Of a stretch of 64,000 bases of DNA, positions 6,660 to 64,000 are shown in pieces. Positions within the stretch are counted from its first letter, which is position 1. The number at the start of each line of letters is the position of its first letter. The notes beneath the pieces were generated by a model. It saw nothing but the letters and a program-made list of their open reading frames with translations. It was not told the DNA's origin and searched no databases. Where the stretch lies: positions 1 through 64,000 of the forward strand of contig JAUCBJ010002048.1 in assembly GCA_032718475.1 (NCBI GenBank), given 5' to 3'. Source of the DNA: Nemertoderma westbladi (taxonomy: Eukaryota; Animalia; Xenacoelomorpha). A program made the translations under genes and the position numbers.

Positions 6660-8093
6660 AGGTTTTGACACTATGCAAAATCCGAGCACAGAGTTAGAAG
6701 CGCATTGGATAGGCGAACATTTCTTGCAGTGAAAGTATTTCCATACCTGTTATAGTTTTTGAGATAGTCAGACATGAGTAGCTAAAATTTGATTTTTTTT
6801 TGGTGAAGTCTTATTTCACCGGTACCTATCATCCGAAATATGGATTGTGATATATCGTTAGATGCGGGTCCACTATCTGTACATTCACATTTTTTCAAGA
6901 ATAAAATTCGATCAAGAGTTTTCGAAATATTTTCGAATTACCGGAAGCAGACTTTGGACGACTATATCTCCGGTACCGGTAGGCCTATTGAGTCGAAATT
7001 TTTTTTAATCTACTTGAACACTCCAGTGAATATTTTTTAGTTTGAAAGTTTTGCCCCAAAATGCTCAGAAGTAATTTGGAAAAAACTGATCATTTCGCGA
7101 TCATGATCTTTTGACCCCCTAGAATTTAACTTTTTTATGGTCAAATTTTGGCTACCCCCCCTAATTCGAGGGTGTGGAATCTTTTTGTAATGTTAAGGTT
7201 TTTCATACGGTGAACTCACATGACTTATGGTCTTCGAAATAAAACCGAAAACATGATCATTCCTGATCATGGCCTGATCAAATCACTTTTTGAAAATTTC
7301 GAAATGCTCAAAAGTTGCCCCTTCTTAATAGAAGTCGATTAGTAAAAAAAAAATCGGGGGTCTCAAACAAAGTTTTCGAGAAAATCGGGAAAAACCAAAA
7401 AACATGATCTTTTATGATCAGGAAGCTGATCTCGAGAACCGGTTACCGATCGAGCCACTTTTTTTTAATCAACTCCGAATAGACCATTGAACATTTCTTA
7501 CAATGAATGTTTATTAAAAAAATGCTTAGAGTCGATTTTAAATATACTGATCTTTTCGCGATCATGATCTTGAGTTTTGACCCACTGGACTTGAAACTTT
7601 TTTTATGCCCAAATTTTGGCTACCTCCCATAATTCGAGGGTGAGGAATCTTTTTGTGGTGTAAGTATAAGTTTTTCCATACAGTGAACTCCCAGGACTTG
7701 ATCTTTGAAAAAAAACCGAAAACACGATCTTTTCTGATCGCGGCCTGATCAAATCGCTTTTTGTAAATTTCGAAATGCTCAAAAGTGGCCCCTTCACCAT
7801 AGAAGTCGATTCGTAAAAAAAAAATCGGGGGTCTCAAACAAAGTTTTCGAGAAAATTCTAAAAAACTGAAAAACACGATCTTTAATGATCAGGTATCAGA
7901 TCTCGAGAACCGGTTGTTCGATTGAGCCAATTTTTATTTAATCGACTCAGGGCAGTGTTCTGAACGTTTCCTACAGTAATTGTTTATATCCAAAATGCTT
8001 AGTTACGATTTTACGAAGTCCGATCTTTGCGCGATCATGATCTTGCATTTTGATCAGGAAGAATTCACTTTTTTTAAATCTTTTAACGGGAAT
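6660..8093. mobile_element. Non-autonomous repeat with ~465-bp internal tandem units, left part; interrupted by the BEL/Pao insertion
   Basis: Units with 'CGCGATCATGATCTT' at ~7096, ~7557 and ~8030; the third unit resumes at 26387. Confidence 0.6.
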
Positions 8094-10248
8094 TGTTACG
8101 GTATATGGCGCTGTATCCACATATATTAGTCCGTTATACTGTACGCAATATTAGTCCGTTATACTGTATGTAATATTAGTCCGTTGTGCAGCATAATATT
8201 TTAGATAAGGCATAATAGCGCAGTGATATTTAGATAGGGAAACCAAAACGCCCATATATTTTGAATCCATCCATTTTGTATAATATGTAGCCCTACCTAC
8301 GTAATTTTGTATTAGGATATATGTAGATAGTTCCAGGGTAGCAAGTTTAGTCGGACCCTGGATTTCGTGCTTGCTGATATTAGCTTCAATAGGGCTAGCA
8401 TATAGGGACGCTGTCCTGGCCATTCAGCAGCCAGGGACATGATCCATTACGATATATGGTAATAATTTGAGGTTTGGGCGGCAATAGGGCTACAATCCGG
8501 CCTCCTTATTGGACTAACTGCTTCCAGGTTGGTCTAATGCTAGCGCGGACTGGAGAGCCAATAGGAGAGCGATTGAGTCACCCTATTGCATCACCCCATC
8601 CGGATCACCTATAAATTGGCGGCTTGCCGGTAGAGCTGTACAACAACCCTATACCTTACAATCCACACCCTTATATTTTAGCGTATTTCTGCAATTTGCT
8701 AAATTTTGATTAATTTCTTAAGATGATTTGCTAGTGCGATTATTCTTGATTGTGTTTCTCAATTAATCCCATCGATTACTGCTAATTACAACTGGAACTA
8801 TGATTTCTACCTTTTGTTAATGGTTCTATGTGATTCCTTTCTACGCAATAATCCTAAGGGATTTCTGAGACTGTCAGACTTTGTGATTTGCATGCGCCGC
8901 TACGGTAGCTATTAGCATAATGGAGGGCTAAGGTGCCAGTGGGCGGTGGGCACATCGGGGGGTTGAGCGACTAAGGGAGAGCGGAGGATTCAAAGGCGGG
9001 CAACGCTGGCGGGGGGTCACCGTTGCGGTCGGGCAGTTCACGCTGTGGTATGCAGACCATTCGCCGGTACGGTAATTAAGGGGCTGATGATCCAGGTTTC
9101 GTCTCTATTTAGTATTAGGGGGGCAGGAATCAGGTTAGTTAGGAGTCCTATATGTACCCGGGAGAGGCCTGCACGTATCACAACGTGGAGTGTGAAGTAC
9201 GAATAGTGAGTCGCACAACTGTGGGCTATACAGTAGTTAACTGCATAATTGCGAACTGTGATTGCTGACGCTGATTGGTGTGTTATTGAAGTGTGCCTAC
9301 GATTGTGAATGTTTAGGTAGGTGCCCCCTTTCTTTGATTGATTTCTATTTCTTAGTTACAACAATTAGTTACTGATTAGGTCAAAGTAATACGGCAATTT
9401 AGGCTATTACTAGCGAAACCTGTTGCGTAATAAATTAGAATTACGCATTCTGGAACTCTTAGTAATTAGTACGCTGTTACATATTTGTGACTGTAATTGA
9501 TTAGTAAAAAATTAAGAATTAGTATGCAGCATAGCGGAGAGTAGCTAAGGTAATAATTAGAGTACTGTAAACTATTCACGCTGAGCGGTTATTTGCATTG
9601 GCGGGCAATCAGCTAGATCGCACTATTCGGTACACACAACACGCTAGTAATTTGCTGGCCTAAAGCCAGCTGCAGGCAAGTTTAGACCCAGAGCGGAACT
9701 ATCCACGTAGAGAAAAATACTGTACCATTTTGATTATTTTAAATATTCTCGCATTCACACATTACGATAGGGAACCCCCAGTATTCGCGATTAGAAAAGG
9801 CGTAGGCAATAGCGTGCTTTAATAGTGATAGAATTAGGCGTAAGAATACTCTGAGTGCAAAGCCTCTCGCACTCGTCTTAAGTAAGCTTAGGGAGCTGAC
9901 TCGGGTTTATTGTTTTGGTTATTCCCGCGTGGCTCATAGATTCGAACAGTTAGCTCTCTATCGAGCAATCGGTAGAGAAAGGAACAAGCAATTTTGCAGG
10001 AGCTGTGTAAATTTAGTAAATTATATTAGCGGACGGCAGATAAGCGCCATCTAACGGTAAGTAGCGGTTTGTATTTAGCAACCCTTACAATTTAGCAATA
10101 TCACGCTCCTGATCCCCTTTACTTAACAGTAGAGCAGTCTTTGTGTCTTATTGGTTAGGCGAGAACTTATTAGGTTGGCAGAGGAGTATACGGGTATTTG
10201 TCTGTTCAACAGTTCTGCTGTTAGTATAGAGGTCGCGGTTGTTTATCA
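8094..10248 (+). repeat. 5' LTR (2155 bp)
   Basis: TGTTACGG...GTTTATCA; matches 24276-26381 except ~4 substitutions seen by eye and two indels (13 bp and net 36 bp); TATAAA at ~8611; short tandem repeat at 8122-8185. Confidence 0.95.
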
Positions 10249-10260
10249 GTGATACGTGCA
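10249..10260 (+). promoter_or_regulatory. Putative self-priming primer-binding site (complementary to LTR 9170-9181 and 25339-25350)
   Basis: GTGATACGTGCA directly abuts the LTR end, lacks the tRNA-type TGG start, and is the exact reverse complement of TGCACGTATCAC in the LTR. Confidence 0.7.
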
Positions 10261-11438
10261 TTGGCTGTAGGCAGTAGCGTACAGTAAATAGAGTATTCTT
10301 AGGCTGATTAGTAGTATCACAGTATTAAGTAATAAATTGGAGCACGTGATCGTCTGCTGTAGGCTATAGGCTAGCGTACAGTAAGACATTGAGTATATTC
10401 TTTTAGGCTGTTAGTTTAGATTACTGTATTCACTGGCTGCGTACAATAGTACAGTAGTACATTAGGCTGATTGCTGTTACTGCGTACGGTAGAAGGACAT
10501 TTGTTTGCCGTACCACACACAGTATCAATTAGGCTGTTAGGTTGGTGTACTGTTTTACTTACTGTACTGCATACAGTGGATGTACGGTAGTGCGTTTTGC
10601 TAATTGCGAATACAGCAGTTCCTTAGGCCTTAGGGCAAACAGTAATTAGTAAGTTTTTTGAAAATTTTAGCTAGGTTTGCGAGAATTCAGTTTCGGTCAA
10701 AATTATTTGTAAAATTCTAGAGTTTTGTACCGGTATGTTAGGTAACCGCTTAGTTATTTTATACCATCTGGAGATACATGGCAAGACGGAACTTCTGAGT
10801 TTGGGGTTCGTGTGGGTCTGCGGGTTCGGTTTGCAATCAGCGAAGGGCCTGAATCTTTGGACGCGGACGTGGAATCTCACAGCAAACAAGGTTAGTTGTT
10901 CTGTTGGCACCATTGTGTTTGTGGAAGCAGTAAAAATTACCGGTTGTTTAACTGCGAAGCTGAACTCAATTTATTAGTTAGGATATTTAGGTTTAGCCGG
11001 CCATGGTTTTTTTGAATCGCTCAAGTTAGAGAGAGAGTTAGAGAGAGTCGCAACCCGAAGATGTAGCCACGCGCTAGTGGATACATATAATATTTGAAAC
11101 TAAAATTACGTTGATTAGAGCTATATATATATAAAATTAGAAATATTCGGGCGGCAAGTATATTTTGAATATTTTGTATTAGATTCAGAGTTATTTTGTG
11201 CTATACCGGTATTTAATGCTATATAATAGCTATATAATAATATTTTTGTTTAAATATTGTGCTAGTATTTGCTATAACTATATACCCCATTAAATTCACA
11301 ATATTGCATTGCGAATTTATTTGACATTTGGACCAACTGATTATTTGACAAATAATTTGACCGTATTTCGGTTAAATTATAATCATATCTCGAACCTTTG
11401 CGAGATATTTTTGCCGGAAGGCAAACATTATTTAGACT

Positions 11439-14400
11439 ATGAGTGTCTCAGACAAGGAGGCACTAGAGGACAGCTATGAGATGGCGGCTGGACCGCCGAC
11501 TGACGATAGCGTCAATATTACTGTTGACGACAATGCCGACTATGACGACGCAGCGAGCGACGCTGACGTAAGTGAACAGGAGGACGAGACAGTGACTAGT
11601 GAGGAAGAACAACAACCTCAAGTAATAGTATTAGGATCCCCTACCGCTACTGTAAGGAAGGACTGTACAGCAGCCCGGACAGAGGTGAGTGATAGGGAGG
11701 GTAGTGTAGCAGAAGCGAGAGCCCGGAGCCCGGTTTCCAGACCTGTGGGTATGGTAAGTGCCGTGGTCCCGACGGCTGTAAGGAGTACCCGTAGTTCCCG
11801 AAATAATCCTTCAAGTCCACCGAGTGTAAGTCAGGTAAGTGATAGAGAGTTCGACACTGCGATAAAGAAGAAACTTCGCGCGCACGCCGGACATATAACT
11901 TGGACGGCGGACAAGGTAAGGAAGATGTTAGCTGACTCAGCGAACATCGGGAGGGTAGAGTTAGCAGAGATTAGAAGAGGATATAACTCAGCGTTATTCA
12001 AGCAGACGGAGGAGCTTGCAGTCCTAGCGAAGAAGGCAGTAGAGTCTCAGTCGAGCGACGTGGCGACGAGGATTTACGATAGGGTTTTGGCAGCCCTGTT
12101 GGAGCACCGCGAGTTATCGGAGCGATTCCGACGAGTTAGGACGGAGAACTGGCTGCTATGGGCATCCCAAGCGCAGGCGACTCAAGTGAGTGACGCAGAG
12201 TTAAGAGACTTAGTGGAGCGAGAAGAGATCCAGGATAAAGAAGAGCGCCGTTATCAGAGGGAAGTTACTAGCTGGCTGATGCAGAATGGAGTGGTGGTAC
12301 CGGGTCAGGTACTACCGACGACGGAGAACATCCAACAGAGGACGTTGACTCCACCCGACGACGCATCCAGAGACAGTGGCGATTCCCAGGTTAGTCACGC
12401 GCGAGGTAAGGTTATATGTGCTAGATCCCTTGTTTCGCACAACTCGGCGGAGGAGAGAAGACGCCGACTGGACGAACAGCAGGCGGAAGTTTTGCGTGCA
12501 TCGGAAGCGCGGAAGGAAGCCGAGCGGGAACGGGAGCGAACACGTAAGTTAGACGCGAAGTTGCGCGAATTGGAAGATAAAGGTAAGAGTGAGCGAGCGG
12601 AACGCGTGCAGAAGGAACGTGAACTTCAACTTGAACGCGAACGCAAGGAACGTGAACTCGAACTTGAACGCGAATGCAAGGAACGCGAACTCGAACTTGA
12701 ACGCGAGCAGAAAGAACGCGAACTCCAGCTCGAACGCGAACGCAAGGAACGCGAACTCCAGCTCGAACGCGAACAGAAGAAATGCGAACTCGAACTTGAA
12801 CGCGAACGCAAGGAACGCGAACTCGAGATCGAGAAGGAGCGACGGGCGTTGTATGAAGAGAAGGCGCGTGTGGAAGAAGAGGGCGCAGCGAGACGAGCGA
12901 GGGAAGAAGAAGAACGTAAACTGGCGCAGTTGGAAAGTGCGAGATTAAGTTTAGAGAGCGAAGAACGGACTAGGAAGGCGAACGAAATCGCCGAGAAGGG
13001 GATGCGAATGATCGAAGAATGTGGGGCGAGTGTAGGGACAGAGTTGCGAGAACTGTTCGCACTGCAGAAGGCCGAACAGGAAGCGAGAACTCCGGCTATA
13101 CGCGAGTCGACGACGACCAGAATTCCTATACCCGGTCCAGCTATTACGAGTACACGGATCGCTAAACCGTTCTCTACATATCGCACGCCAGTTGGTATTA
13201 GTGCTTCACCTATCGCCCAGGATCCACGTCATCGGAACACCGCACCACTATACACCGAACGAGAGAATGAAGAATTTAGAGAAGAAACTCCGACGGGACG
13301 AGTATTTGGCGAACCGAACCCGCGGGTTTGGAATACGCGGACGGAGCGCCGACCCAGTTCGACGGAGAACTTCCGGGTTAAACCGGAAGAGGGATCATAT
13401 GAGAGACAGCGGATTACTCAGATAGAGCCGACTATACAACAGAACCCTAGCCAGGAATTTATTACGAGGGATGAGTTAAGTGCTAGTTTAGCGCAAGCTA
13501 TATCGCCGCACATCCAACCTATAACGGACATGCTTAGCAACCTACGGTTAAAGGAAGCAGCCCAGGTAAGAAGTAATTCTAATCCTAGCAGGCCTGAGTT
13601 AGACAAAGTCCAGCCTAGTCAACGAGTACGCATATCGGAGGAGACTATACCACATAGACCTCAGGTAAGGACGCCTGTCCCGAATATTCATAATCCCAAT
13701 TTCGAAAATTCGGCCGAGAAATTTATACAAGATGCTTGGGTCAGGGCCTCGGCGCGCAAACCATCGCGAGCGCTAAGGACTGACACAGAGTCAAGCGATG
13801 AAGAGGAAGAAATGAGACGTCAGAAGTCCCGAAACTATAAGGAAAGAAGGACCGACGCGGAGCAGGTAAGTTGGAACCACCGGGAAAGGACCAGACTTAA
13901 CAACCCTGCGGAACTAAACCATTTGTTAACCCGCAACGACGCAACCCTTAGGGACATAGGTAAGTTTGCTGCTAGGCAAGGACTGCCGACGCAACAACCC
14001 CAGAAGTTTATGGGTAACCATAAGCATTGGAGGACCTTCAAAACCTATGTCGACGAGCAGCTAACCAACAGCACCTTTACTCCCAACGAGAAGTTCAACT
14101 ATTTGCTTCAGATGCTCCATCGAGAACCTAGAGCCATTGCTGATAACTTCGTCGGCAATGAAAGAGCATTCGAGTTAGCGATGAAGACGCTTAGTGACAT
14201 CTACGGGAATAAAACCAAGATGGCGCAGTCGATAGTAGAAGACTTGGGTAAGGGCGGAAGGATTACAACTCCGTTAGAGCTGTTGAACTTAGCGAACGCT
14301 ATTTCGAACGCATTGGACATCTTGAGGACGGTGAATCTACCTCATCATGGTGATCACGCCGAAGTTTTAAAGAGCGTAATAAGACGTCTAAACATGCGTT

Positions 14401-15101
14401 ATCGACAGAAATGGCGCAAATTAGAAAATAAGTTGGAGGGTCAAGGTAAGGTGTTGACACTTCAGCATATTCATGACATGATAGCCACAGACGCAGTAGC
14501 AGAGATGAAATCAAACTTCTCAGAGGAGAATATGAGGGAGTCTAAGCCTGTTACCGGTAAGTCTATGGTAAGTTTTGACGATGACAGGACCACTGTGACA
14601 TTTAACTCAGTAGACAGATATAATTCGAGTACCCTAGCCTTTAGATCAGACTCGCGAGTATGGTCAGGTGAGCGGTTAGATAGACCTAGGTTAAAGCAAC
14701 AGGAGTTGCCGGATGGATTTGTAGGTTGCCAATACTGTTTACTAAAGGAGGTAAGATCTGACGATCATAAGTTAGATAGTTGCAGACGGTTCAAAGAATT
14801 AAATTCGGAACAGAGAAGAGTTCAAGTGCGGACGTTGGACACCTGTTGGGCATGTCTTGCGCCAGGCCATGTACGGCGGCAGTGCCCGAACAGCAAGGAC
14901 GGATGCATGGAATGCGGCAGACTACATCACAAGTTGCTACATGCGGATTTCCACACCCCAATGGACCGTTACTTACAGCGAAATCCTCACAGGAAGGGGA
15001 GCAAAGAACCCATATCGATAAGGAGGAATACGTATACCGGCATTCAGGATGATGGTTACCAACCAGGTTCATCGGATGAGGATGGCGAGTCGAGCGCGTG
15101 A
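11439..15101 (+). CDS. gag: BEL/Pao Gag (1220 aa): acidic N-terminus, coiled-coil 11-aa repeats, DUF1759-like region, three zinc motifs
   Basis: 'PQKFMGN..HW.TF...EKFNYL' region; CQYC..H..C, CWACLAPGHVRRQC, CMECGRLHHKLLH. Confidence 0.9.
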   Translation: MSVSDKEALEDSYEMAAGPPTDDSVNITVDDNADYDDAASDADVSEQEDETVTSEEEQQPQVIVLGSPTATVRKDCTAARTEVSDREGSVAEARARSPVSRPVGMVSAVVPTAVRSTRSSRNNPSSPPSVSQVSDREFDTAIKKKLRAHAGHITWTADKVRKMLADSANIGRVELAEIRRGYNSALFKQTEELAVLAKKAVESQSSDVATRIYDRVLAALLEHRELSERFRRVRTENWLLWASQAQATQVSDAELRDLVEREEIQDKEERRYQREVTSWLMQNGVVVPGQVLPTTENIQQRTLTPPDDASRDSGDSQVSHARGKVICARSLVSHNSAEERRRRLDEQQAEVLRASEARKEAERERERTRKLDAKLRELEDKGKSERAERVQKERELQLERERKERELELERECKERELELEREQKERELQLERERKERELQLEREQKKCELELERERKERELEIEKERRALYEEKARVEEEGAARRAREEEERKLAQLESARLSLESEERTRKANEIAEKGMRMIEECGASVGTELRELFALQKAEQEARTPAIRESTTTRIPIPGPAITSTRIAKPFSTYRTPVGISASPIAQDPRHRNTAPLYTERENEEFREETPTGRVFGEPNPRVWNTRTERRPSSTENFRVKPEEGSYERQRITQIEPTIQQNPSQEFITRDELSASLAQAISPHIQPITDMLSNLRLKEAAQVRSNSNPSRPELDKVQPSQRVRISEETIPHRPQVRTPVPNIHNPNFENSAEKFIQDAWVRASARKPSRALRTDTESSDEEEEMRRQKSRNYKERRTDAEQVSWNHRERTRLNNPAELNHLLTRNDATLRDIGKFAARQGLPTQQPQKFMGNHKHWRTFKTYVDEQLTNSTFTPNEKFNYLLQMLHREPRAIADNFVGNERAFELAMKTLSDIYGNKTKMAQSIVEDLGKGGRITTPLELLNLANAISNALDILRTVNLPHHGDHAEVLKSVIRRLNMRYRQKWRKLENKLEGQGKVLTLQHIHDMIATDAVAEMKSNFSEENMRESKPVTGKSMVSFDDDRTTVTFNSVDRYNSSTLAFRSDSRVWSGERLDRPRLKQQELPDGFVGCQYCLLKEVRSDDHKLDSCRRFKELNSEQRRVQVRTLDTCWACLAPGHVRRQCPNSKDGCMECGRLHHKLLHADFHTPMDRYLQRNPHRKGSKEPISIRRNTYTGIQDDGYQPGSSDEDGESSA

Positions 15102-15137
15102 GAAGTGACCTGCCAAGGTTTCACCGCGGATAGTTAA

Positions 15138-17693
15138 CCGACCAGCGCGCGGACGTATTTATCATCGGCCACGTCGGAAATATTTAGCGTGATTCCGGTG
15201 AAACTCACTGGCGATAAGGGATCGAAGAGAATATATGTGATGTTGGACACTGCGTCCACATTATCCTATATCGACGAGGAAGTGGCGAGAGCCGTTTCTA
15301 GCTTCCAGGACGCCGAGGAGATCCAAATAGAGTTGAAGTCTATGCACGGGGTAGGAGACCTCAAGGGACACAGAATTTCGGTAGAACTAGATTCCCTACT
15401 TCCGAGAGACCAACATACTCGACAAGAACGGAAAGCTTTGCCATTGGACGGATTTAAGTGTCTAGCTATGAAGGGATTCGGCAGGCAGTTAGGTAAGGTG
15501 CCGCCGATGAGTCCCATAGCACAGGAGTATTTTGACAAGCTCAGGATACCCAGACACCAGGTAGGTTATAGGAATGTTTCTATGTTGATTGGTGCAGAGC
15601 AGCTGATCGCACACCAGATATGGGAAACGAGACCAGCTGAGCCGCATGTCAATGGACCACATGCCCATAGGACTATATTAGGTTGGTATACACGAGTACC
15701 CATGTCTTATGAGTTTACAGGTGGCGACAAGCCAATGAACAGATACGATGAATTACGGCCTATAACTCAACCACCGTTAGTAGAACCACCAGACATAGAC
15801 GAGTTTAGGAGAACCTGTATTGACCACTATAGTGACTTTAGCGAGTCGGACGAGGAGTTGATTCCCGATAATGTTAGGTTGTCGGAACCACTTCATAACG
15901 ACCGGACAGATAGTGAACCCGAGGACTACTGTTATCAGACCCGTGGGTCTGGTTCAGCGGCCCACGCTACCTATTTGACTAACGTTTTGACTTATACTGA
16001 CATAGTGGAGGGTCAGGTGGCTAAATATCGAGACCTAGACATTTTCCAATACAGTGAGGAGGAGCTACAGAAGGAATTGATACGCCAGGACCTCGAGACA
16101 GGAGCCAGAACCGTCGAATGGCTGGATAGGGACGCAATGGAACCCGGTGGATATGACCTAGCCATGTCTACTAATGAGAAACGGTCGCTGGAGATGATGG
16201 AAGACACCATACGTCTACTACCGACTGGACATTTTGAAGTTGGAATGTTGTGGCGTCGACAACCACCTAAGTTGGAGAACAACTATAACTTAGCCTTGAA
16301 AAGATTAAACGGAGTAAGGGCTCGGTTGTTAAGGAATCCGAACATTAGGGAGAAGTATTGCGCCCAGATCAACAACTATTTCGCTAAGGGATTTGCTGGG
16401 AAGGTAGAGGTCCCTGACTTAGTGACAGACCAGACTTATTACCTTCCACACCAATATGTGACTCACCCTGACAAGCCAGACAAAGTCCGAGTAGTCAACG
16501 ACTGCGCAGCAGTCTATAGAGGTATGTCCCTGAATTCAGAGTTGATGGACGGACCCAACCTGAATAATTATTTGATTGGAATACTGTTGCGTTTTAGACA
16601 GCGGCGATTCGCATTTACTTGTGACATCGAGGCGATGTTCCACCAGGTAAGAGCCTGTAAGGCAGACCAGGATAGCCTTCGCTTTCTCTGGTACGAGAAT
16701 GAAGACCTATCCGGCCCAGTGGTTAAATACCAGATGTACGTTAGGATATTTGGCGCCCGCGATAGTCCAAACGGCACGCTGTTTGTTCTAAAGAAAACGG
16801 CAACAGCCCAGATTGGTAAGTATCCAGTAGAGGTAATCGAGTCCATCTTGAGAAACTTCTATATGGACGACGGATTGGTGTCCAAGGACACAGAGGAACA
16901 AGCCATAGAAGTGGCTCACGGCCTGCAAGAGTGCTTGGCTACAGGGGGTTTTCCTCTGACCAAGTTCACTACAAACTCGGAGGCCCTATTAGAGTCGTTC
17001 CCGGTAAAAGATCGCGGGAGCGGAGACATTGAATTGGGGGTAGAACCAATCCCCATGGCGCGAGTACTGGGACTCGCTTGGAATCCGAACTCAGATAAGT
17101 TCCAGGTAAGAGTTAGATTTGAGCCCAGTAGCCCAGACAAAGTTTTGACAAAGAGGATTTGCTTATCGACATTAAGTAGACTATTTGACCCGATGAACTT
17201 TATCAGTCCGGTTATATTACAGGCACGAGCGTGCATGAGGAAAATTTGGTTGTCCGACGTAGAGTGGGACGAACCAATATCTCCTATACATGCAAAGCAG
17301 TGGAGGGAGTGGGAAGCTGAGTTGCATCTATTGAAAAATATAGACGTACCCCGTTCCTACTTTCCGAATCAGCTGGTATTCCCAGCTGATCTCGAACTCC
17401 ATCTGTTTAGTGACGCAAGTGACACCGGCTTTGGTATGGTAGCCTACCTTCGCCGAGAGGTAAGTCAGGACAAGTTTGAGACGGCTTTTGTGACTTCTAG
17501 ATCAAAGACAATGCCGGTCAAATACATGACTGTCCCTCGTGCAGAGTTACAGGCAGCTGTAGTTTCAGTCGAGGTAAGTAAGCAAATAACAGAGGAGTTA
17601 GACACGACATTGACCTTATTCTATTGGACGGACGCATCCTTGGTGTTAGTATACATTGCGGCCGACAATATCCAATATCGAAACTTCCATTAG
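15138..17693 (+). pseudogene. pol: Pol part 1: aspartic protease, RT and truncated Pao RNase H
   Basis: LDTAS protease, 'KVRVVNDC', 'DIEAMFHQV', YMDD, 'LHLFSDAS', 'VPRAELQAA', 'YWTDA'; same frame as gag but separated by two stops; ends before the expected NPAD..SRG motif. Confidence 0.9.
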
Positions 17694-19321
17694 TTAGCGG
17701 ACAACCGTCGCTGGCATTAGAGTCATGCAGTATTTATGACAAATTACTAAATTCGTCTGCCTCTTGGCTGACAATTTGTAAAAGAACTGCGTGGTTAAGC
17801 CGATACGTTTCGTACCTTTGTATAAAACATTTGAAACATTTGAGAGAACCATCGAGCGCTAATAGTGAGCGAATTCAGAAATTGAAACAACCTCTGACAG
17901 AGGATGAGATTGATCAAGCGGAATTAAAGCATTTGAAACATTATCAAATGTGTGCCTTCCCAAAAGAATTCCATCTATTATCGGCTCAACGACCAGTTCT
18001 CTATAAACCCCTTAGAAAATGGAGTCCATTAATCCATAAGGGTTTAATTTGTCATAGATCGAGAATCCAGACTGTCGACATAAACTCACAGTTTCGGTTC
18101 CCAGTGATAATCCCTAGTCACCCAATAGAATTGCAAAGAGCGATTCTATGGGATATACACAAGAGGTTGCATCACGCGGGAAGGTTACACTGTTTGTCGG
18201 CAGCGAGACAGCGATTCATTCTATTGCAGCCAAGCAGGGCAGTAGGCACTATGTACGACGCCTGTCTGGTTTGCAAGAGAGTGAACGCCAGAGTATTGGA
18301 ACAGGAGATGGCTGAACTCCCGGAAGCGAGAGTGCAGGCATATGACCCACCCTTTACGAACACAGGGGTGGATTGTTTTGGTCCGATTGAAGCAAAGAGT
18401 GGACGGCTGACCCACAAGCGATGGGGTCTGCTACTGACATGCATGGCTAGTAGAGCCATACACATTGAGCGTGTGGCAGACATGTCGACCAAATCTCTGC
18501 TCCTGGCCTTGAAGAGATTTATGGCCAGGAGAGGACTAGTAAAGGCGTTCTACTCCGATAAGGGTACAAACTTTGTCAGAGGGAATAGCGAGTTGAACGC
18601 GGCTCATAAAGCGGCACAGAATAAGGAAATTTCTGCAGCACTTTTGCCGCAAAGAGTAGAGTGGAGATTTAATACTCCAGAAAGTCCTTGGAGAGGAGGA
18701 AGTTGGGAGCGTTTAGTTCGCTCTGTAAAGCAGGCCATTGCCAAAACATTGCCTGTAAACAAACAACTTACCGACGACGAACTGGTCACAGCTTTCATTG
18801 AAATCGAGCATACCCTAAACTCGAGGCCGATAGCTATGTTGCCAGACGGTGTTGCATTAACGCCGAATCATTTGCTAATGCAGAGTCCAGCATTTCTTGT
18901 GCCGGCATCAGAACCCATTAGTGCCGACCTATATAGTCGTAAAGGCTGGAAAGTAACACAATTTGTCGCGTACACATTCTGGGAATATTGGCGGGAATAC
19001 TATCTTCCCACCATATCTACCAGAACAAAGTGGTACAAAACGGTTCGGAGTCTCCAAAGGGGAGATTACGTACTGATAACCGAGCCGATTGTCAAGAGAA
19101 AGTACTGGGAGACGGGAGTGATCTTGCACACACACCCAGACGTGCAAAACATAGTGCGCACAGTCACTGTGAAAATTATGTGCAAGTGTCCGCACCCAAA
19201 AAAGTGTAAAACTAATGGTTTACACACCTTGGACCGACCGGTCCAAGATATCGTGTTATTAGAGGAGACACGTATCGAGACGGGAGATTATAATTTGTCT
19301 CCTGCCTCAAAACAGAATTAG
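17690..19321 (+). pseudogene. pol: Pol part 2: integrase (HHCC + DDE), out of frame after an internal deletion
   Basis: H..LHHAG...C..C; GVDCFGP, SDKGTNF, GGSWERLV; 'FWEYWREYYL' C-terminal BEL/Pao motif. Confidence 0.9.
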
Positions 19322-20092
19322 TGTTGGACGCAACTCACTTCGTATGCATTCCTCGTATGCAAATACAAGGAAATGCATAGGAGCGGGGTTGTGGTGACTT
19401 GCGTTGAGTTTTGTCTGGTGGGTATCAAAACGAAATTTTATTTTCAAAAATTTTGGAAAATTTAAAATTTTAAAAATTAGAAGTGAACCCAAGACAATTC
19501 CAGACGCTGTGTATAGACGCGTTTTAGAATTCGTCTATAGATATACAGTAATTTGAAAAGTCGTGAAGCCTGGAAAATAGCATTTAGAAACCATGGTGAC
19601 GGCTATATTACGTAGGAGTGTAAATTGAGTTTAGCAACTTCCACAGATTGGTGCCAACAGTGCAACTAAGGTGCTAAAGGTTAGTAGCACCAGGGGCGTA
19701 CATGGACCCCACTCAGTAGTTTGCAGGATGTGTGATGTTCGATTATCAAACCTGTGGGTTTGGTATAGTCGGGTATTGTGGCTATGGTCCTTTCTAACTA
19801 CTGTAGTTTAGTACGAGTGATGGGAGTAGTTTGGGCATCAAAAAGTGAGTTGGTCACGGCCAGTTTATCTCCAAAGTTTTGCGCTATGCATGGGAATAGG
19901 TTAGAGGATAGTTAGTTAGGAAGAGACGGGATCTAGAGAGTCGAACCTGAACTGCTGGAAGGCGGGGGGGGGGGGGGGGGGGGGGTTCGGGAGGTCTGTC
20001 TTTCGGCGACATCTAACTGATTTACCCACAGTGTAATTGGTTACGTAACGGCACTTATTGGGATATATATATATGTATATACGCGAGGCATA

Positions 20093-23000
20093 ATGGAGAA
20101 GGATATTAGAGCGCAACCGCGCAGAGGATTTACTGCCAGAGAGGAGGCGGAGCTACCATTCGCGCGACCAGGATGTAAAGACTCTAACGTTTACTACCAT
20201 GGGCGGTCCGTGATGGAGCTAAACGGAAAATATAAACCGACTTATGATAAGGAATTACGGAGGGAAAGAATGAGAGCGTTGGGGGACCGGATGGAAGTTT
20301 TGCGGAGAGAGTATCGCACGCGGTATCCCTACGACTTCGCTTTGGACGTATGTGACATTAGTGCAGACCCGGATGAGGAGATCGCACGACTGTACCATAT
20401 GAATATGTATTTACGACACGAAGAACCTCTACCTGCAATCCGAGATCAGTTCGACGGAATGCATCTATACCGGAGGACTCGAGGCGAGGATCAGGAGACG
20501 CCGAAAGTCTTCAGCGTGTACAAGCTGTTCTACAAGTGTGGTGAATGCATGAATAAGCAAGACGTGGCGATTCCCGATCGACTAGACGAGCAACATCCGG
20601 AACCGATATTAACGCGATGTCCAGCTCACCAGTTCCTTAGATACAACGAGGGAGGTTACCCGATGAGCAACCCGATGATCAGTATCGACTTCAGCGGAAA
20701 GCGACCTCCGAGACCCATTACGCCGACCGTTACGACATTAGATCCGTATACGGAGATTAAACCCTGTTCGACACCCAGTTTGATAGAGACGGCAGCGGCC
20801 ATTTCGCTGTACCGAGCCTACAAGGATCTAGAGGCGCGGCGCGAAGCGGCGCGGGACTCGGGTACCAAACCCGCGGGTTTGGAGCTCTCGAGTCCCTGGA
20901 CTGCGTTTACTTCACCTCACCGAGCGAGAAGCCTCACGCCTGAGCATCAGGACGACATAGACGCGTTGCGGCAGGAGGAGCGAGCGGCGAAGGCGAAAGA
21001 GTTATTTGAGAATCGGATAGCGGAGTATAATAAGACCGCGGATAGACATCAAGAGGAGACGAGGAGAGTGACCGGATTTGTTCCACAGGTCGTATCTCAA
21101 CCCCGACCGGTGTATTATTCCGACGGCACCGAACCTGCGATATTAGTAGATCATCCGGAGTCGCGAGAAGCGATACGATTCTTGCCGATGGTAAGAATGG
21201 CGGATCATTGGAACGTTGACTGTCTACGGGAAGTTTTATGCGCGAAGTTCTTGCGTGATGTCCCAATGCAGATCACAGATTACGACACATTGGATAAGAT
21301 TGGAGCTCCGGGGAAGGAGAGTAAATTATTTGGATGGTTGGATAAGTACATCAAGGTATGGGTCGCGGTGGCTACATTCCCAGACGACGAGGAGGTAGAC
21401 CAGACGTGGCTGAGGAGGAAGGGTTCTTATACCCGATATGATGACCACAAGGCTATCGAGCGCATGTGGACCCCATCAGACGAGATTCAGCGTCAGTGGA
21501 GGAAAACGGAGGAATCACTGCAGGATTGGAGGGTGATGTTCTACGACAATGAAGGAGGGTCCCATCAAGAATGTTTGACTAGCAAGTGTATTCAAATTCG
21601 TGCAGCCGATGGTGTGACTCATGTGTTTATGCGTGTGAGGGCGGATCGAGAGAGACCGGAGCCCATCATAACGACACAATATCGGAAGGGGAAGGATCCT
21701 AGGGAGCAGATTTTGGAGGTATGCAGGCGAGGAGGTATGCACGGAGCGGAGCGTATCGACGCCAGGATGCTACCCAAGAAAGTTAGAGAGGCTATTCTCA
21801 ACCAAGATTACGTCAAGGTGGGATCGGGAGTCCAGAGCGATTTGGAGAGCGACTTCAACGCCATGACTGATCTGGAAGATAGATTGCCGAGACCGTTTGT
21901 CGACACCAAGCTATTGTTGCTATGGGCACAGGATATTGGAATTTATAGGGAGTATCCCAACTCTGCCAAGACTGGTATGGGCTTTATAGCACACTTGTTG
22001 TATAATTGGGACTTTAAGTTAAAGACGCAGAAGAAGTACGAGGAGGCGTATGGCGAATACAACACGCCACCGGGAGCGGAGTTCAAATCCCACTTCAAGC
22101 GGCAAGCGTTAGTGTATTGGAACATTTGCGCGCCACCCCGTGCGTCGCTACAATATTATTTGGTGCTTGAGTCGAACACGGTGACTTGTTTATTAGCGGA
22201 TATCGTTGCGCGAGTTTTGAAGCGTCATCCATTGGTATTCGGAGGAGATCAATACGTTCGCTCGAAAGGGGGAATCCAATCCGACGTGATGAAGCGTTTC
22301 TTAACCCCGTTCTTCAACCAATCGTTAGAGAATACGTCGATGGTTAGGAGAGGATTAGCGATATTCCAAGGAGTATATCGACAGAACATCGGAGATTTGG
22401 GAGACCGACCGTCGATGGAGTATCCGACGCCAGAAGCTTTGGAGAAGTGGTTCGGGAATCAAACCCGCGGGTTTCGTACTCCCTTCCACTCGGAGGCTGA
22501 TAGACCTGTTAAGGAGGGCTGGCCGGAGACGTTAGTAGAGGTGTTCGGAGTAGATCTTCCGGTGGAGAAGACATATCCGAAACGAACGCGGGAGGAAATA
22601 TTGGAGATAGAGGACAAGGGCGAGGATGTTTACTTTGTTCCGGATCGACAACCGTTGACCGGAGAGGACGACATCGTATTAGACATTGGGAAGGAAGGAA
22701 GTGCGAAACCGATTGGAGACCTCATATACGAGAGGGCCTGGTTTCCACAAGCGCGTAGGTGCAAATTGTGCGGCAGCACAAGGCACAATCTAAAGTCGTG
22801 CGACGCGGTAGTAGAGGCGGCGCATAAGGTCTGTCGTTGGTGTAATGAGACCGACCATTCGTTTCACACGTGCACCGTCTTCATTTCTCAATGTGGATAT
22901 TGTGGGGTAAAGGGACATCGTAGCGCGAGATGTCAGCTGCGAGATGATTCCTTTCAAAACCATAGCGCTAACCTACTTCGGGAGATGTTAGATAAGTGGG

Positions 23001-23800
23001 AGAGTGTGGCTGATTACCATATTCAAGCGCAGATGCGTTGGTTACCATTTAAGGCGGGATATGGATTTTGGGCGGTAGACCCATCGCATGTTGCGTACGA
23101 GCCATATCTACAATCGCTACCACAATATCAGGAACTCATCCTAACTGCTCAAGACCTTCCACAGAACACTGGAGTTATCGTAGTCCGAGAATACTTCAGA
23201 CAATTGAATATGGATAACAAGTACACCTGGAACTTCGTTGCTATTTGCGATCGCATCACGAAGGGTGTATTTACGGAGACTAGAAAAGTGGTACGCGCGC
23301 GAGGTGAATGGAGGATGGCGGCTATACAATACCGCAACGAATTCTTGTTGACTCATGTGCCAGTGGGTTCATTGACCGCTGAGAGGATACAGGGACAGAG
23401 GATCGCAGCGACCACAGCGACGACCGCTGGAGCTCAAGGCTCGCGGAAAGAACCAGGAGGAGGGGTCCACGACAAGCGTCAAGTCAAGGACGACCACTAT
23501 CACTCTATTATAGAAGCACAGAGGTTGCAGCGCAAGGCGCAGGGAGCGTCGGAAAAAGCGCGTGTGCAACTGCATAAGGAAGAGTTGGCGGAAGCGACCA
23601 CGGGAGCACGACAATTGGGACGAGGCCGAGGAAGAAGCACGAGCCGGGAATCTGTCGGGGCTCAGGGAACATCGTCGCCGGTTCCGGGGAGTGATGCCTC
23701 ACGGATGCCGTCAACGGAGTCGACTGGAGGACGACTGGTGTATCTGGGGAGGGGGCGAAAGAGAGGAGCGAGCCCAAAGAACCCAGGAGCGGGTCGATAA
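20093..23800 (+). CDS. Accessory ORF3 (1235 aa): DnaQ/DEDDy 3'-5' exonuclease-like domain + 3 CCHC zinc knuckles + RG-rich tail
   Basis: FYDNEG (ExoI), CIQI, LPKKVREAIL.....KVGSGVQSD (ExoII), FVDTK, W...P....QYYLVLE (ExoIII-like); CKLCGSTRHNLKSC, CRWCNETDHSFHTC, CGYCGVKGHRSARC. Confidence 0.8.
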   Translation: MEKDIRAQPRRGFTAREEAELPFARPGCKDSNVYYHGRSVMELNGKYKPTYDKELRRERMRALGDRMEVLRREYRTRYPYDFALDVCDISADPDEEIARLYHMNMYLRHEEPLPAIRDQFDGMHLYRRTRGEDQETPKVFSVYKLFYKCGECMNKQDVAIPDRLDEQHPEPILTRCPAHQFLRYNEGGYPMSNPMISIDFSGKRPPRPITPTVTTLDPYTEIKPCSTPSLIETAAAISLYRAYKDLEARREAARDSGTKPAGLELSSPWTAFTSPHRARSLTPEHQDDIDALRQEERAAKAKELFENRIAEYNKTADRHQEETRRVTGFVPQVVSQPRPVYYSDGTEPAILVDHPESREAIRFLPMVRMADHWNVDCLREVLCAKFLRDVPMQITDYDTLDKIGAPGKESKLFGWLDKYIKVWVAVATFPDDEEVDQTWLRRKGSYTRYDDHKAIERMWTPSDEIQRQWRKTEESLQDWRVMFYDNEGGSHQECLTSKCIQIRAADGVTHVFMRVRADRERPEPIITTQYRKGKDPREQILEVCRRGGMHGAERIDARMLPKKVREAILNQDYVKVGSGVQSDLESDFNAMTDLEDRLPRPFVDTKLLLLWAQDIGIYREYPNSAKTGMGFIAHLLYNWDFKLKTQKKYEEAYGEYNTPPGAEFKSHFKRQALVYWNICAPPRASLQYYLVLESNTVTCLLADIVARVLKRHPLVFGGDQYVRSKGGIQSDVMKRFLTPFFNQSLENTSMVRRGLAIFQGVYRQNIGDLGDRPSMEYPTPEALEKWFGNQTRGFRTPFHSEADRPVKEGWPETLVEVFGVDLPVEKTYPKRTREEILEIEDKGEDVYFVPDRQPLTGEDDIVLDIGKEGSAKPIGDLIYERAWFPQARRCKLCGSTRHNLKSCDAVVEAAHKVCRWCNETDHSFHTCTVFISQCGYCGVKGHRSARCQLRDDSFQNHSANLLREMLDKWESVADYHIQAQMRWLPFKAGYGFWAVDPSHVAYEPYLQSLPQYQELILTAQDLPQNTGVIVVREYFRQLNMDNKYTWNFVAICDRITKGVFTETRKVVRARGEWRMAAIQYRNEFLLTHVPVGSLTAERIQGQRIAATTATTAGAQGSRKEPGGGVHDKRQVKDDHYHSIIEAQRLQRKAQGASEKARVQLHKEELAEATTGARQLGRGRGRSTSRESVGAQGTSSPVPGSDASRMPSTESTGGRLVYLGRGRKRGASPKNPGAGR

Positions 23801-24275
23801 TACATCATAGCACAGGGCGACAGACTCTAGATATATACATCATCGTCGCTCTGATGTATATTGTAGCATTTAGAAATCTTCGACTAGACTCATATACACT
23901 AGTTGAGCTGTTTTGAATTTATATTATGAGAGAGGCGAAGGAAGTGATTGGGGAGACAAACCTGCGGGTTTGGCTTACTCCTTTCACTTGCCCTAGCAAA
24001 TTTTTTTATATATATTTGATTTTGTATGTAGTAATCATTATGTAGTACGAACGAGAAACAATATTTGTAAATTTAATTTGAATGAGAGAGATAATATTTG
24101 TAAATTTAATTTGTATGCAATTCATTATGCAATATCTATAGCAATATTTTGTAAATAGTAGGATTTATAGTATCAAGTATTTAGATTATTTGGAAGAAAT
24201 TTATTTTGTTTGTATACATCACCTTATACTCTTCTACAGTTGGAGGGAAACATTATATGATTTCCCTTGGAGCGG

Positions 24276-26381
24276 TGTTACGGTATATGGCGCTGTATCC
24301 ACATATATTAGTCCGTTATACTGTACGCAATATTAGTCCGTTATACTGTATGTAATATTAGTCCGTTGTGCAGCATAATATTTTAGATAAGGCATAATAG
24401 CGCAGTGATATTTAGATAGGGAAACCAAAACGCCCATATATTTTGAATCCATCCATTTTGTATAATATGTAGCCCTACCTACGTAATTTTGTATTAGGAT
24501 ATATGTAGATAGTTCCAGGGTAGCAAGTTTAGTCGGACCCTGGATTTCGTGCTTGCTGATATTAGCTTCAATAGGGCTAGCATATAGGGACGCTGTCCTG
24601 GCCATTCAGCAGCCAGGGACATGATCCATTACCATATATGGTAATAATTTGAGGTTTGGGCGGCAATAGGGCTACAATCCGGCCCCCTTATTGGACTAAC
24701 TGCTTCCAGGTTGGTCTAATGCTAGCGCGGACTGGAGAGCCAATAGGAGAGCGATTGAGTCACCCTATTGCATCACCCCATCCGGATCACCTATAAATTG
24801 GCGGCTTGCCGGTAGAGCTGTACAACAACCCTATACCTTACAATCCACACCCTTATATTTTAGCGTATTTCTGCAATTTGCTAAATTTTGATTAATTTCT
24901 TAAGATGATTTGCTAGTGCGATTATTCTTGATTGTGTTTCTCAATTAATCCCATCGATTACTGCTAATTACAACTGGAACTATGATTTCTACCTTTTGTT
25001 AATGGTTCTATGTGATTCCTTTCTACGCAATAATCCTAAGGGATTTCTGAGACTGTCAGACTTTGTGATTTGCATGCGCCGCTACGGTAGCTATTAGCAT
25101 AATGGAGGGCTAAGGTGCCAGTGGGCGGTGGTTGAGCGACTAAGGGAGAGCGGAGGATTCAAAGGCGGGCAACGCTGGCGGGGGGTCACCGTTGCGGTCG
25201 GGCAGTTCACGCTGTGGTATGCAGACCATTCGCCGGTACGGTAATTAAGGGGCTGATGATCCAGGTTTCGTCTCTATTTAGTATTAGGGGGGCAGGAATC
25301 AGGTTAGTTAGGAGTCCTATATGTACCCGGGAGAGGCCTGCACGTATCACAACGTGGAGTGTGAAGTACGAATAGTGAGTCGCACAACTGTGGGCTATAC
25401 AGTAGTTAACTGCATAATTGCGAACTGTGATTGCTGACGCTGATTGGTGTGTTATTGAAGTGTGCCTACGATTGTGAATGTTTAGGTAGGTGCCCCCTTT
25501 CTTTGATTGATTTCTATTTCTTAGTTACAACAATTAGTTACTGATTAGGTCAAAGTAATACGGCAATTTAGGCTATTACTAGCGAAACCTGTTGCGTAAT
25601 AAATTAGAATTACGCATTCTGGAACTCTTAGTAATTAGTACGCTGTTACATATTTGTGACTGTGATTGATTAGTAAAAAATTAAGAATTAGTACGCAGCA
25701 TAGCGGAGAGTAGCTAAGGTAATAATTAGAGTACTGTAAACTATTCACGCTGAGCGGTTATTTGCATTGGCGGGCAATCAGCTAGATCGCACTATTCGGT
25801 ACACACAACACGCTAGTAATTTGCTGGCCTAAAGCCAGCTGCAGGCAAGTTTAGACCCAGAGCGGAACTATCCACGTAGAGAAAAATACTGTACCATTTT
25901 GATTATTTTAAATATTCTCGCATTCACACATTACGATAGGGAACCCCCAGTATTCGCGATTAGAAAAGGCGTAGGCAATAGCGTGCTTTAATAGTGATAG
26001 AATTAGGCGTAAGAATACTCTGAGTGCAAAGCCTCTCGCACTCGTCTTAAGTAAGCTTAGGGAGCTGACTCGGGTTTATTGTTTTGGTTATTCCCGCGTG
26101 GCTCATAGATTCGAACAGTTAGCTCTCTATCGAGCAATCGGTAGAGAAAGGAACAAGCAATTTTGCAGGAGCTGTGTAAATTTAGTAAATTATATTAGCG
26201 GACGGCAGATAAGCGCCATCTAACGGTAAGTAGCGGTTTGTATTTAGCAACCCTTACAATTTAGCAATCGTCTTTGTGTCTTATTGGTTAGGCGAGAACT
26301 TATTAGGTTGGCAGAGGAGTATACGGGTATTTGTCTGTTCAACAGTTCTGCTGTTAGTATAGAGGTCGCGGTTGTTTATCA
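24276..26381 (+). repeat. 3' LTR (2106 bp)
   Basis: Direct repeat of 8094-10248; preceded by a short purine-rich GGAGCGG and a hairpin AGGGAAACAT-TAT-ATGATTTCCCT. Confidence 0.95.
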
Positions 26382-26386
26382 GGAAT

Positions 26387-26865
26387 CATGGCTAATGTGG
26401 GGTCGCTGAATCTTTTTGTAATGTTAAGTTTTTCGATTGGGGCAAGCCTTGAGTGTCCGAATCCTGATCAAAACTGATCTTTGCTGATCATGGTCAAGAT
26501 CATGATCTGATCGCTCCAAAAAAGTCTTTTTTAAGGTAAATCCATATGCTGCCTATCGATTGGCGCCGGTTCCAAGTCCGTAGCATTAGCGGTTCTAGAG
26601 ATCGACGCATAGCAACGAGGTTGCTAGGGAAGCGGACTTTTTGACTCAAATTGGCCCTAGACGGAGAACCGTAGACATTTGAAACGTAATGTATATGGGA
26701 AAAAGTCTTCTGGATAAATTTTTTTTTTGGGGGGGGGGGGGGTCTAGGAACATCCTATTGTTGGTTTTCGCTTAGTTTCTGAGAAAAGCTTCTCCCCCAA
26801 ATTCCAAACTCCCCCAATCTATAAAGGCGTGCGCAATGACTAGTTCCGTGGCCGAGCACGGAATT
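26387..26865. mobile_element. Right part of the interrupted non-autonomous repeat; Helentron/HINE-like terminal hairpin
   Basis: Continues the ~465-bp unit; ends ACTAG-TTCCGTG-gccgag-CACGGAA-TT; the matching other end was not located. Confidence 0.4.
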
Positions 26866-30568: not shown

Positions 30569-52529
<21,961 letters not shown>

Positions 52530-63059: not shown

Positions 63060-64000
63060 ATGACACAATCTACGGACCCGGTTTCAAACTTTGTGGCTGG
63101 TGGTGTCGGTGGCCTTTGCTGCGTTCTGGTTGGACATCCGTTCGATACGATAAAGGTGCAGCAGCAGACGGGAATGCACAGCAGCCCGTCTGCAGGACTC
63201 AGACACCTGGTAGGCACTGAAGGCGCCCGAGGGCTATACAGAGGGGTGGCATCTCCGCTGCTCATAATGGCCCCAATCTCATGCACAATGTTCGCTTCGT
63301 ACGCCGTGGGCAAACGATTACTATTGGGTGCCGACACGGGTCAGGCCCAGGCGAAACTACCGCCGAGTAGCTTGGTAGCGGCGGGGGCTTTCTCTGGTAT
63401 CTTTACAGGTTTAATCAACGGCCCCGCGGAGAGAGTGAAAGTAGCACTCCAGGTGCAGACAACCAATACACGCCCGGTTAGTATTTTAGAGGTATACAAC
63501 ATTATTAATGAAATATATGAACGAACTTTAAGTACTTGTCAATTTTAGTCGATTAGAATGATACTGTATCAACAATTTATTTTGGTTTCCAGACGGTGCT
63601 CAAAGGCACTATAGACTGTATTTCTGGAATGTACCGTGAAGGTGGATTACGAACAATGTTTAAAGGAACACCTATTACCATGGTCCGAGATGTTCCGGCA
63701 TTGGCTGTATTCTTTGCTACTTACGATATTACATTGAGGAAATTAAATAAAATGAGGAATCAGCAGGATTCAAATAAGGTTCAACCACTAGCAACAATCA
63801 TAGCTGGTGGAATTGCAGGTAGGCGGAATTAGATGATTGTTGTCAATTTGGGACTTTATTGTTGTAGACAACGTTAATATCTTTCTTCGTTCTATGCTAC
63901 GCAGTACTTGTCTAGTCTACTTCACAACAATAATTTCATTTTTCTTTTTTTAAGGTTTAATCCAGTGGATATGCATCTTACCAATAGATACGGTGAAATC
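63060..64000 (+). CDS. SLC25A20: Mitochondrial carnitine/acylcarnitine carrier-like (SLC25), exons 63060-63476, 63593-63818, 63955->64000
   Basis: 'FVAGGVGGLCCVLVGHPFDTIKV', 'PAERVK', 'RDVPA', 'PIDTVKS' carrier signatures; GT-AG, phase-compatible introns. Confidence 0.88.

Follow-up and report, generated by a model that had tools for sequence, protein, structure and literature searches.

A long-range RNA duplex predicted to clasp gag-pol in a BEL/Pao retrotransposon of Nemertoderma westbladi

Why should the leader of a retrotransposon be complementary to a spacer that lies beyond its pol gene, about 8.6 kb away? The question is raised by an 18.3-kb long terminal repeat (LTR) retrotransposon that spans positions 8095-26381 of the window analyzed here, namely the first 64,000 nucleotides of contig JAUCBJ010002048.1 (assembly GCA_032718475.1) of N. 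westbladi, and that carries a third large open reading frame (ORF3) after gag and pol. A first-pass annotation of this DNA had pointed to four complementary blocks in the leader and the pol-ORF3 spacer and had proposed that their pairing as RNA loops out gag-pol, which could aid splicing, ribosome shunting, or packaging. Our analyses show that the complementarity between the leader and the post-pol spacer is beyond chance, and among the roles that such pairing might play we tentatively favor splicing.

Complementarity between the leader and the post-pol spacer

All four blocks are present as annotated, except that block 4 has its partner one base further on, at 19588-19605 rather than 19587-19604, and the arms that hold them do bracket gag-pol and lie upstream of ORF3 (Table 1). 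On the sense strand, the duplex energies of blocks 1-4 are -25.0, -46.4, -18.0, and -22.7 kcal/mol, and cofolding adds two further short helices (10789-10793 with 19718-19722 and 10816-10819 with 19694-19697), for a total of 88 core predicted pairs of which 12 are G·U, with no uninterrupted helix longer than 16 bp. The interaction energy is -63.4 kcal/mol, whereas 150 dinucleotide shuffles of the 3' arm give -7.8 ± 2.9 (at best -17.1) and 128 windows taken elsewhere in the element give -8.4 ± 4.0 (at best -20.7). To guard against a post-hoc choice of the arms, a blind scan was run over 7,503 pairs of 250-nt windows between 9170 and 25.6 kb; the duplex came first with a score of 105, the best pair outside it scoring 71 (mean 30.5, standard deviation 6.8). 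The helices also persist when 1.2 kb of leader and 0.7 kb of spacer are folded together (1.9 kb), with a net gain of -33 kcal/mol over the separate folds and with helices of -38 and -46 kcal/mol. The antisense strand, as in any inverted repeat, also pairs far past chance (-50.5 kcal/mol versus -8.8 ± 3.1 for 60 shuffles; -17.0, -38.4, -13.8, and -21.1 for blocks 1-4); energy alone is therefore no proof of function at the RNA level, and the strand evidence has to come from the mismatches.

Several of these mismatches had been read in the first-pass annotation as G-U-compatible and thus as favoring pairing of the sense RNA, and the counts agree: an identity-only alignment of the arms contains nine transition mismatches of the G·U type and none of the A·C type (p = 0.002), together with nine transversions. 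Because G and T abound on the sense strand of both arms, G·U counts are inflated (expected share 0.63); once base composition is corrected for, the bias has a p value of 0.016. In addition, the two strands carry hairpins inserted between helices at a shared junction, which resembles a folded RNA more than a decayed duplication. A decaying relic of an inverted duplication, left for example by a reverse transcriptase template switch and without present function, is in our view rather improbable. It would be in keeping with the good pairing of the antisense strand, with the G/T-richness of the arms, and with a depletion of copy variants in the 5' arm that is not significant, but it fits poorly with the lack of A·C-type changes among the nine transitions, with inter-helix spacers that are unrelated in length and fold locally, with the youth of this copy of a high-copy family, and with an independent locus (L056, see below) showing the same G·U bias.

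Variation among copies was taken from public-run contigs over 10690-11060, which yielded 32 substitution rows and cover the 5' arm only. The commonest variants (10913, 10940, 10983, and 10986) and the indels inside the arm (10931 and 11007) occur at unpaired or run positions. Five variants at paired positions attain 3% in a deep run, of which four preserve the pairing and one lies at a helix end; because 42 of 88 transitions would be compatible by chance, this proportion is not significant (p about 0.16, calculated by hand). The copy variants thus lean toward pairing of the sense RNA, although not significantly. Among the contig joints displayed (15 of 93, plus 1), none linked the two arms, and no gag-pol-deleted DNA derivative was seen. 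One run may be of RNA, but its contigs continue through the leader and gag-pol as those of DNA do.

A predicted splicing route to ORF3

The reading that we tentatively prefer is that the duplex acts as a clasp that loops out gag-pol and favors splicing between a leader donor and an acceptor at 20031, yielding a separate ORF3 mRNA. The two arms, whose pairing inside cells is predicted from sequence, would come together in the retrotransposon RNA as an interrupted duplex of about 88 bp, which would form in the nucleus once the 3' arm has been transcribed. An intron of about 10 kb (10057-20031) would effectively shrink to about 1 kb, and the 28 GTAAG motifs inside the loop, which are potential competing donors, would be fenced off. 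RNA that escapes splicing would serve as the gag-pol mRNA and as the genome, ribosomes scanning toward the gag AUG would need to open the clasp, and, as a more speculative step, the ORF3 protein might act on unspliced RNA as CERV does for Cer1. This reading draws on the energy and rank of the duplex, its G·U bias, its side hairpins, and the location of variants at unpaired positions; on the enrichment of donor motifs within the loop, their non-fusing phase, and the smaller number of upstream AUGs after splicing at 20031; and on precedents in other systems. The splicing proposal of the first-pass annotation has thereby gained indirect support.

The donor motifs are unevenly distributed. GTAAG occurs 19 times in gag against 8.2 expected, a count reached by none of 300 synonymous shuffles, and nine times in the region encoding protease, reverse transcriptase, and RNase H (PR-RT-RH) against 4.0 expected (3 of 300 shuffles). 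These 28 sense motifs, roughly double the number expected from synonymous shuffling, lie within 11568-17578 and end before the integrase, which has none (2.5 expected); the spacer, U3, and the 3' untranslated region also have none, ORF3 has one (3.3 expected), and the motif is almost never found antisense in the loop. A similar contrast appears at the codon level, with GTAAG used for 17 of 36 Val-Ser/Arg pairs in gag and PR-RT-RH versus 1 of 16 in the integrase and ORF3 (p = 0.004). No comparable excess was found in 32 other BEL/Pao ORFs, the highest value (z = 2.2) being that of L056. All 28 motifs are in phase 0 or 1, whereas the acceptor at 20031 needs phase 2 (frame worked out by hand), so that such donors would not make an in-frame Gag/Pol-ORF3 fusion at this site, and splicing there would leave one spacer upstream AUG instead of seven. 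Intact 5' splice-site motifs are, moreover, described as able to retain mRNAs in the nucleus (PMC11629677).

With regard to the splice sites themselves, the best-scoring candidate donor upstream of the 5' arm (Table 1) is accompanied by weaker ones at 10649 and 10733, and the candidate acceptor at 20031 is the sole one with a branch-like motif among the 12 top-ranked spacer acceptors. Upstream of this acceptor, past the 3' arm, is a long G run (19964-19986) at which contigs break. The same arms might instead drive back-splicing into a circular RNA, or modulate host silencing or editing as double-stranded RNA, an idea to which we give very little credence: the top-scoring acceptor of the leader (11188) does fall within the loop, near its start and ahead of the gag AUG, but no donor better than a weak one (3.4 at 19418) lies between the end of the integrase and the 3' arm, and the uninterrupted helices, of up to 16 bp, are short for Dicer or ADAR.

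Precedents for the favored splicing route come from both retroelements and host genes. Cer1 of Caenorhabditis elegans, a Ty3/gypsy element, is reported to express its post-pol ORF via a spliced mRNA (PMC3315495, PMC10309623), and it resembles the present element in having a large non-env ORF after pol and an unspliced RNA that retains many consensus splice sites (PMC3315495). On the other hand, Cer1 is gypsy-type with a tRNA-Pro primer-binding site (PBS), and CERV has exons in common with gag as well as G-protein-like and cysteine-loop domains, whereas in the present element splicing is only predicted; the main texts of these two papers contain no mention of base-pair or pairing. The ORF3s of rotifer LTR elements are stated to be "expressed from spliced messages" (PMC5408684). 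In host genes, complementary regions kilobases apart are reported to be enriched inside introns and to act on splicing, for example in ENAH (PMC8052449); the examples cited there have about -16 to -20 kcal/mol, whereas the present duplex is stronger and would loop out the whole gag-pol of a retroelement. Splicing bridges, like long-range pairing within the RNA of retroelements, are of kinds already known.

The leader, and other BEL/Pao elements

The RNA in which the arms would pair probably starts within the 5' LTR. All 12 bases that directly follow this LTR pair with 9170-9181, extendable by four pairs across a 2-nt bulge, and the only window matches to the PBS-complementary 12-mer are those at 9170 and in the 3' LTR copy at 25339; the element is probably self-primed in the manner of Tf1. 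Tf1/Sushi, Tcn1, and TAR likewise have a PBS position complementary to their own LTR but belong to gypsy and copia lineages (PMC6317226), and the start in the present case is deduced from sequence. Transcription would begin near 9170, because AUG depletion sets in there and the single poly(A) signal of the LTR follows 260 nt downstream, and would give a scanned leader of 2.27 kb. From 9170 to the gag start there are eight sense AUGs against 38.2 expected, which makes AUG the most depleted of the 64 triplets, the antisense count being 25 against 33.2; in 8641-9169 AUGs are not depleted (nine against 9.5).

These counts bear on ribosome shunting, in which the ORF at 10778-10798 would be translated and the ribosome would jump over the stem base to land in the spacer and reach ORF3 on RNA that is still unspliced. 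In caulimoviruses, shunts have the geometry of a short ORF ending at the base of a stem, and the 6-codon ORF here does end in the first helix, at the stem base, with only four AUGs between 9170 and its start and no listed variant at its start or stop codon. However, AUGs are not depleted in the spacer as they are in the gag leader: 19723-20031 holds six against 4.7 expected and a seventh lies at 20073, all of which would compete, and ORF3 begins 371 nt beyond the stem. Shunting is therefore a very improbable role, and of the three suggested in the first-pass annotation it is the one disfavored. A second 6-codon upstream ORF (20073-20095), whose stop overlaps the ORF3 start codon, may be there by chance.

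A comparison set of 80 BEL/Pao loci from metagenome contigs was used to ask how widespread such pairing is; 29 had a locatable long ORF with flanks, and two of these were dropped for short flanks, leaving 27. Pairing between the leader and the post-pol sequence gave z values of -1.1 to 2.5 in 26 of the 27, compared with 6.2 for the present element and 10.5 for the remaining locus, L056, which alone stood out again in a wider-flank scan of 36 loci (127.5 versus at most 48.5). The L056 duplex pairs 972-1105 with 7013-7139 over more than 100 nt, from 79 nt upstream to 54 nt downstream of the start of gag (-79 to +54 around its AUG) to a partner 155-281 nt past the pol stop; its transitions are 18 of the G·U type versus one of the A·C type, and it belongs to a different BEL/Pao clade in an RT-RH tree of 95 sequences. 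A leader-to-post-pol duplex is thus rare in BEL/Pao elements but not unique to this one.

The existence of L056 keeps alive the packaging role suggested at the outset, and with it an explanation modeled on the CYC5-CYC3 pairing of Ty1, which we hold to be the main alternative although less likely than splicing. In such a scheme, the duplex would close the genomic RNA, block scanning to the gag AUG, and mark the RNA for packaging, dimerization, or reverse transcription, and it may predate an ORF3 that was captured later. Several observations are in agreement with it: the duplex of L056, in another clade, lies around the gag AUG and has the same mismatch bias; the whole leader is AUG-depleted, so that helices of -38 and -46 kcal/mol would affect gag translation; the hairpin motif present in five dispersed copies (Table 1) could be a protein-binding site; and, by eye, 19380-19392, just past pol, resembles the element's own purine tract followed by the LTR start, perhaps left over from an ancestor that lacked ORF3. 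The hairpin has a YGYG loop, three of its copies are in coding sequence, a variant copy occurs at 15936, and none was found elsewhere in the 64 kb at up to two mismatches, all five being inside the element. Against a CYC-like role, the strong duplex is absent from 26 of the 27 other loci, 430 nt separate the end of the 5' arm from the gag AUG, around which the local fold hardly changes when the 3' partner is added, and the enrichment of donor motifs is left unexplained. The CYC pairing of Ty1 is also short, about 14 nt, whereas here about 88 bp are spread over several helices. Both span gag-pol in the RNA of an LTR retrotransposon, with CYC3 placed at the 3' end of the genome (PMC7969010), whereas the 3' arm described here is upstream of a third ORF and about 4.55 kb from the 3' LTR (19722 versus 24278), so that the genome ends would not be joined. 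A switch in translation or packaging and a splicing role are not mutually exclusive.

Set against clasp-assisted splicing are the following points. The L056 duplex covers the gag AUG and no ORF3 was detected with it, which speaks for a role that does not depend on ORF3, although its contig ends at the arm and an ORF3 might follow beyond. The leader of the present element is AUG-depleted across the 5' arm, so that gag translation likely passes through this arm and the clasp can be closed only conditionally. The acceptor at 20031 is only fifth by score, with a branch point as close as about 14 nt, and the splice sites were predicted with a crude generic matrix. No spliced read or contig was seen in the public runs covered, which were contigs and none of which was recorded as RNA. 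In the 5' arm, variants occupy 7 of 88 paired positions versus 17 of 132 others (Fisher p = 0.18, not significant), and the eight variant rows at paired positions are split equally, four breaking the pair with an unchanged partner and four keeping it. Finally, ORF3 could be made by spliced-leader trans-splicing, from an internal promoter, or through an internal ribosome entry site.

ORF3, the element, and its surroundings

ORF3 is predicted to be an RNA-binding, nuclease-like protein. It had no match in Pfam and none in a word-indexed search, but a search of cluster representatives gave eight distant relatives, and it belongs to a small unnamed protein family (P0001-P0010) whose profile matches Lin28-type and nucleocapsid zinc knuckles, the CCHC-domain protein 7c45, and EXD2 (E = 0.006). 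In an L-INS-i alignment with the eight homologs, the acidic residues D485, E487, D583, and E692 align, and acidic residues are present at all three exonuclease motifs, which we take to be ExoI, ExoII, and ExoIII. A loss of the first catalytic motif was considered and rejected, since a whole-protein alignment had misplaced ExoI and L-INS-i restores it. With regard to a DnaQ-like fold, structure models were of low confidence (predicted local distance difference test scores of 43.5 and 42.3), and Foldseek searches with the first of them gave EXD2-type proteins as best matches at E ≥ 0.16. No match to ORF3 was found in the 80 BEL/Pao loci, and no DNA around its homologs in searches of metagenome or viral contigs. 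The bdelloid elements Juno and Vesta have a DEDDy ORF3 with an RNase D/WRN-like exonuclease domain (PMC5408684), a likeness by domain type only, as they represent other LTR lineages, whereas the present protein belongs to a BEL/Pao element, has 1235 residues, and carries three zinc knuckles.

The host element has direct LTRs with TG...CA ends and a 5-bp target-site duplication, as expected of an LTR element, and its LTRs are 97.5% identical by self-BLAST. Judged by its gag and pol domains in the order PR-RT-RH-integrase, it is a BEL/Pao element: PR and RT motifs can be read directly from the pol translation, and a homolog search gave 157 matches, of which at least 120, among the matches listed, have BEL/Pao-type domains. 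BEL/Pao is stated to be a metazoan-only group (PMC3601003). In the 95-sequence tree, the element sits on a long branch without a close relative, and pol-based searches of viral contigs gave no match, nor did Rfam over 8000-26500 at E ≤ 1. In this copy, in-frame stops at about 15.1 kb part gag from pol, and the pol frame changes near 17.6-17.7 kb. Contigs from public DNA runs contain many variant copies within one organism (27,577 records from one run); the family is thus high-copy, and the present copy is young, its LTRs differing by five substitutions plus gaps. The element was inserted where a tandem repeat of 471 bp ends (2.1 copies, 7109-8076), and related sequence resumes at about 26408.

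Table 1. Positions in the 64,000-nucleotide window of the retrotransposon's parts and of the candidate RNA features
Feature	Position	Strand	Description
5' LTR	8095-10248	+	2154 bp; TG...CA ends; 5-bp target-site duplication before it
Candidate self-primer 12-mer	9170-9181	+	Exact complement of PBS position; approximate transcript 5' end, deduced
Candidate splice donor	10054-10062	+	GT at 10057; best-scoring upstream of 5' arm (generic weight matrix)
PBS position	10249-10260	+	Lacks initial TGG; complementary to 9170-9181
6-codon upstream ORF	10778-10798	+	Stop in first helix; shunt-like geometry, possibly by chance
5' arm	10789-11008	+	Helices 10789-10819, 10892-10927, 10959-10974, 10994-11008; local hairpins or loops between them
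gag ORF	11439-15101	+	DUF1759 (Pfam); zinc knuckles; sense GTAAG motifs enriched
pol	15138-19321	+	PR-RT-RH 15138-17693; integrase 17582-19321; Peptidase_A17, Integrase_H2C2, DUF5641 (Pfam)
3' arm	19589-19722	+	268-401 nt past pol stop; side hairpin 19670-19691
Palindromic hairpin motif	19747-19760	+	One of five copies; others at 13315, 20866, 22460, 23957
Candidate branch point and 3' splice site	20012-20031	+	CAG ends at 20031; 61 nt before ORF3 AUG
ORF3	20093-23800	+	1235 aa; DEDD-exonuclease-like domain, then three zinc knuckles
3' LTR	24278-26381	+	Target-site duplication after it; AATAAA/ATTAAA only at 25598

Elsewhere in the window, there are three very long simple or satellite arrays (27615-29838 with 6-bp units, 32996-38763 with 16-bp units, and 40843-42306 with 3-bp units), a foldback element with 226-bp arms (43099-43595), and an element of 1.5 kb bounded by terminal inverted repeats (44348-45855), within which we take the frame to be THAP-like. 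Frames on the minus strand at 30569-31958 presumably correspond to exons of a Cys-loop/acetylcholine-receptor-type gene, those at 47342-49717, 39363-39923, and 57799-58599, also on the minus strand, to broken non-LTR reverse transcriptases, and 63036-63548 to a mitochondrial-carrier-like exon.

In the open-access literature, consulted mostly as titles and abstract openings, no report surfaced of a leader-to-post-pol duplex in BEL/Pao elements or upstream of a third ORF; the same literature yielded no self-priming PBS in BEL/Pao, although older BEL/Pao papers may describe the PBS, and no exonuclease-like ORF3 or donor-motif enrichment in gag-pol for this group. How spliced and unspliced RNA are balanced is known for only very few LTR elements that carry a third gene, and a clasp that brackets gag-pol would provide a concrete, mutable cis-element for this balance. 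The duplex is several times stronger than the host bridges cited above, and L056, a second case in another clade, suggests a pattern that may recur among LTR retrotransposons. Taken to its furthest, though we think this unlikely as a whole, the element would run a program like that of complex retroviruses on RNA structure alone, combining a self-primed genome, a gag-pol region seeded with U1-binding motifs that retain unspliced RNA in the nucleus, a clasp that loops these motifs out so that an ORF3 mRNA is spliced, and an ORF3 protein that attaches to the repeated hairpins and either unlocks the clasp or licenses export, with clasps having arisen more than once in BEL/Pao, as L056 would indicate.

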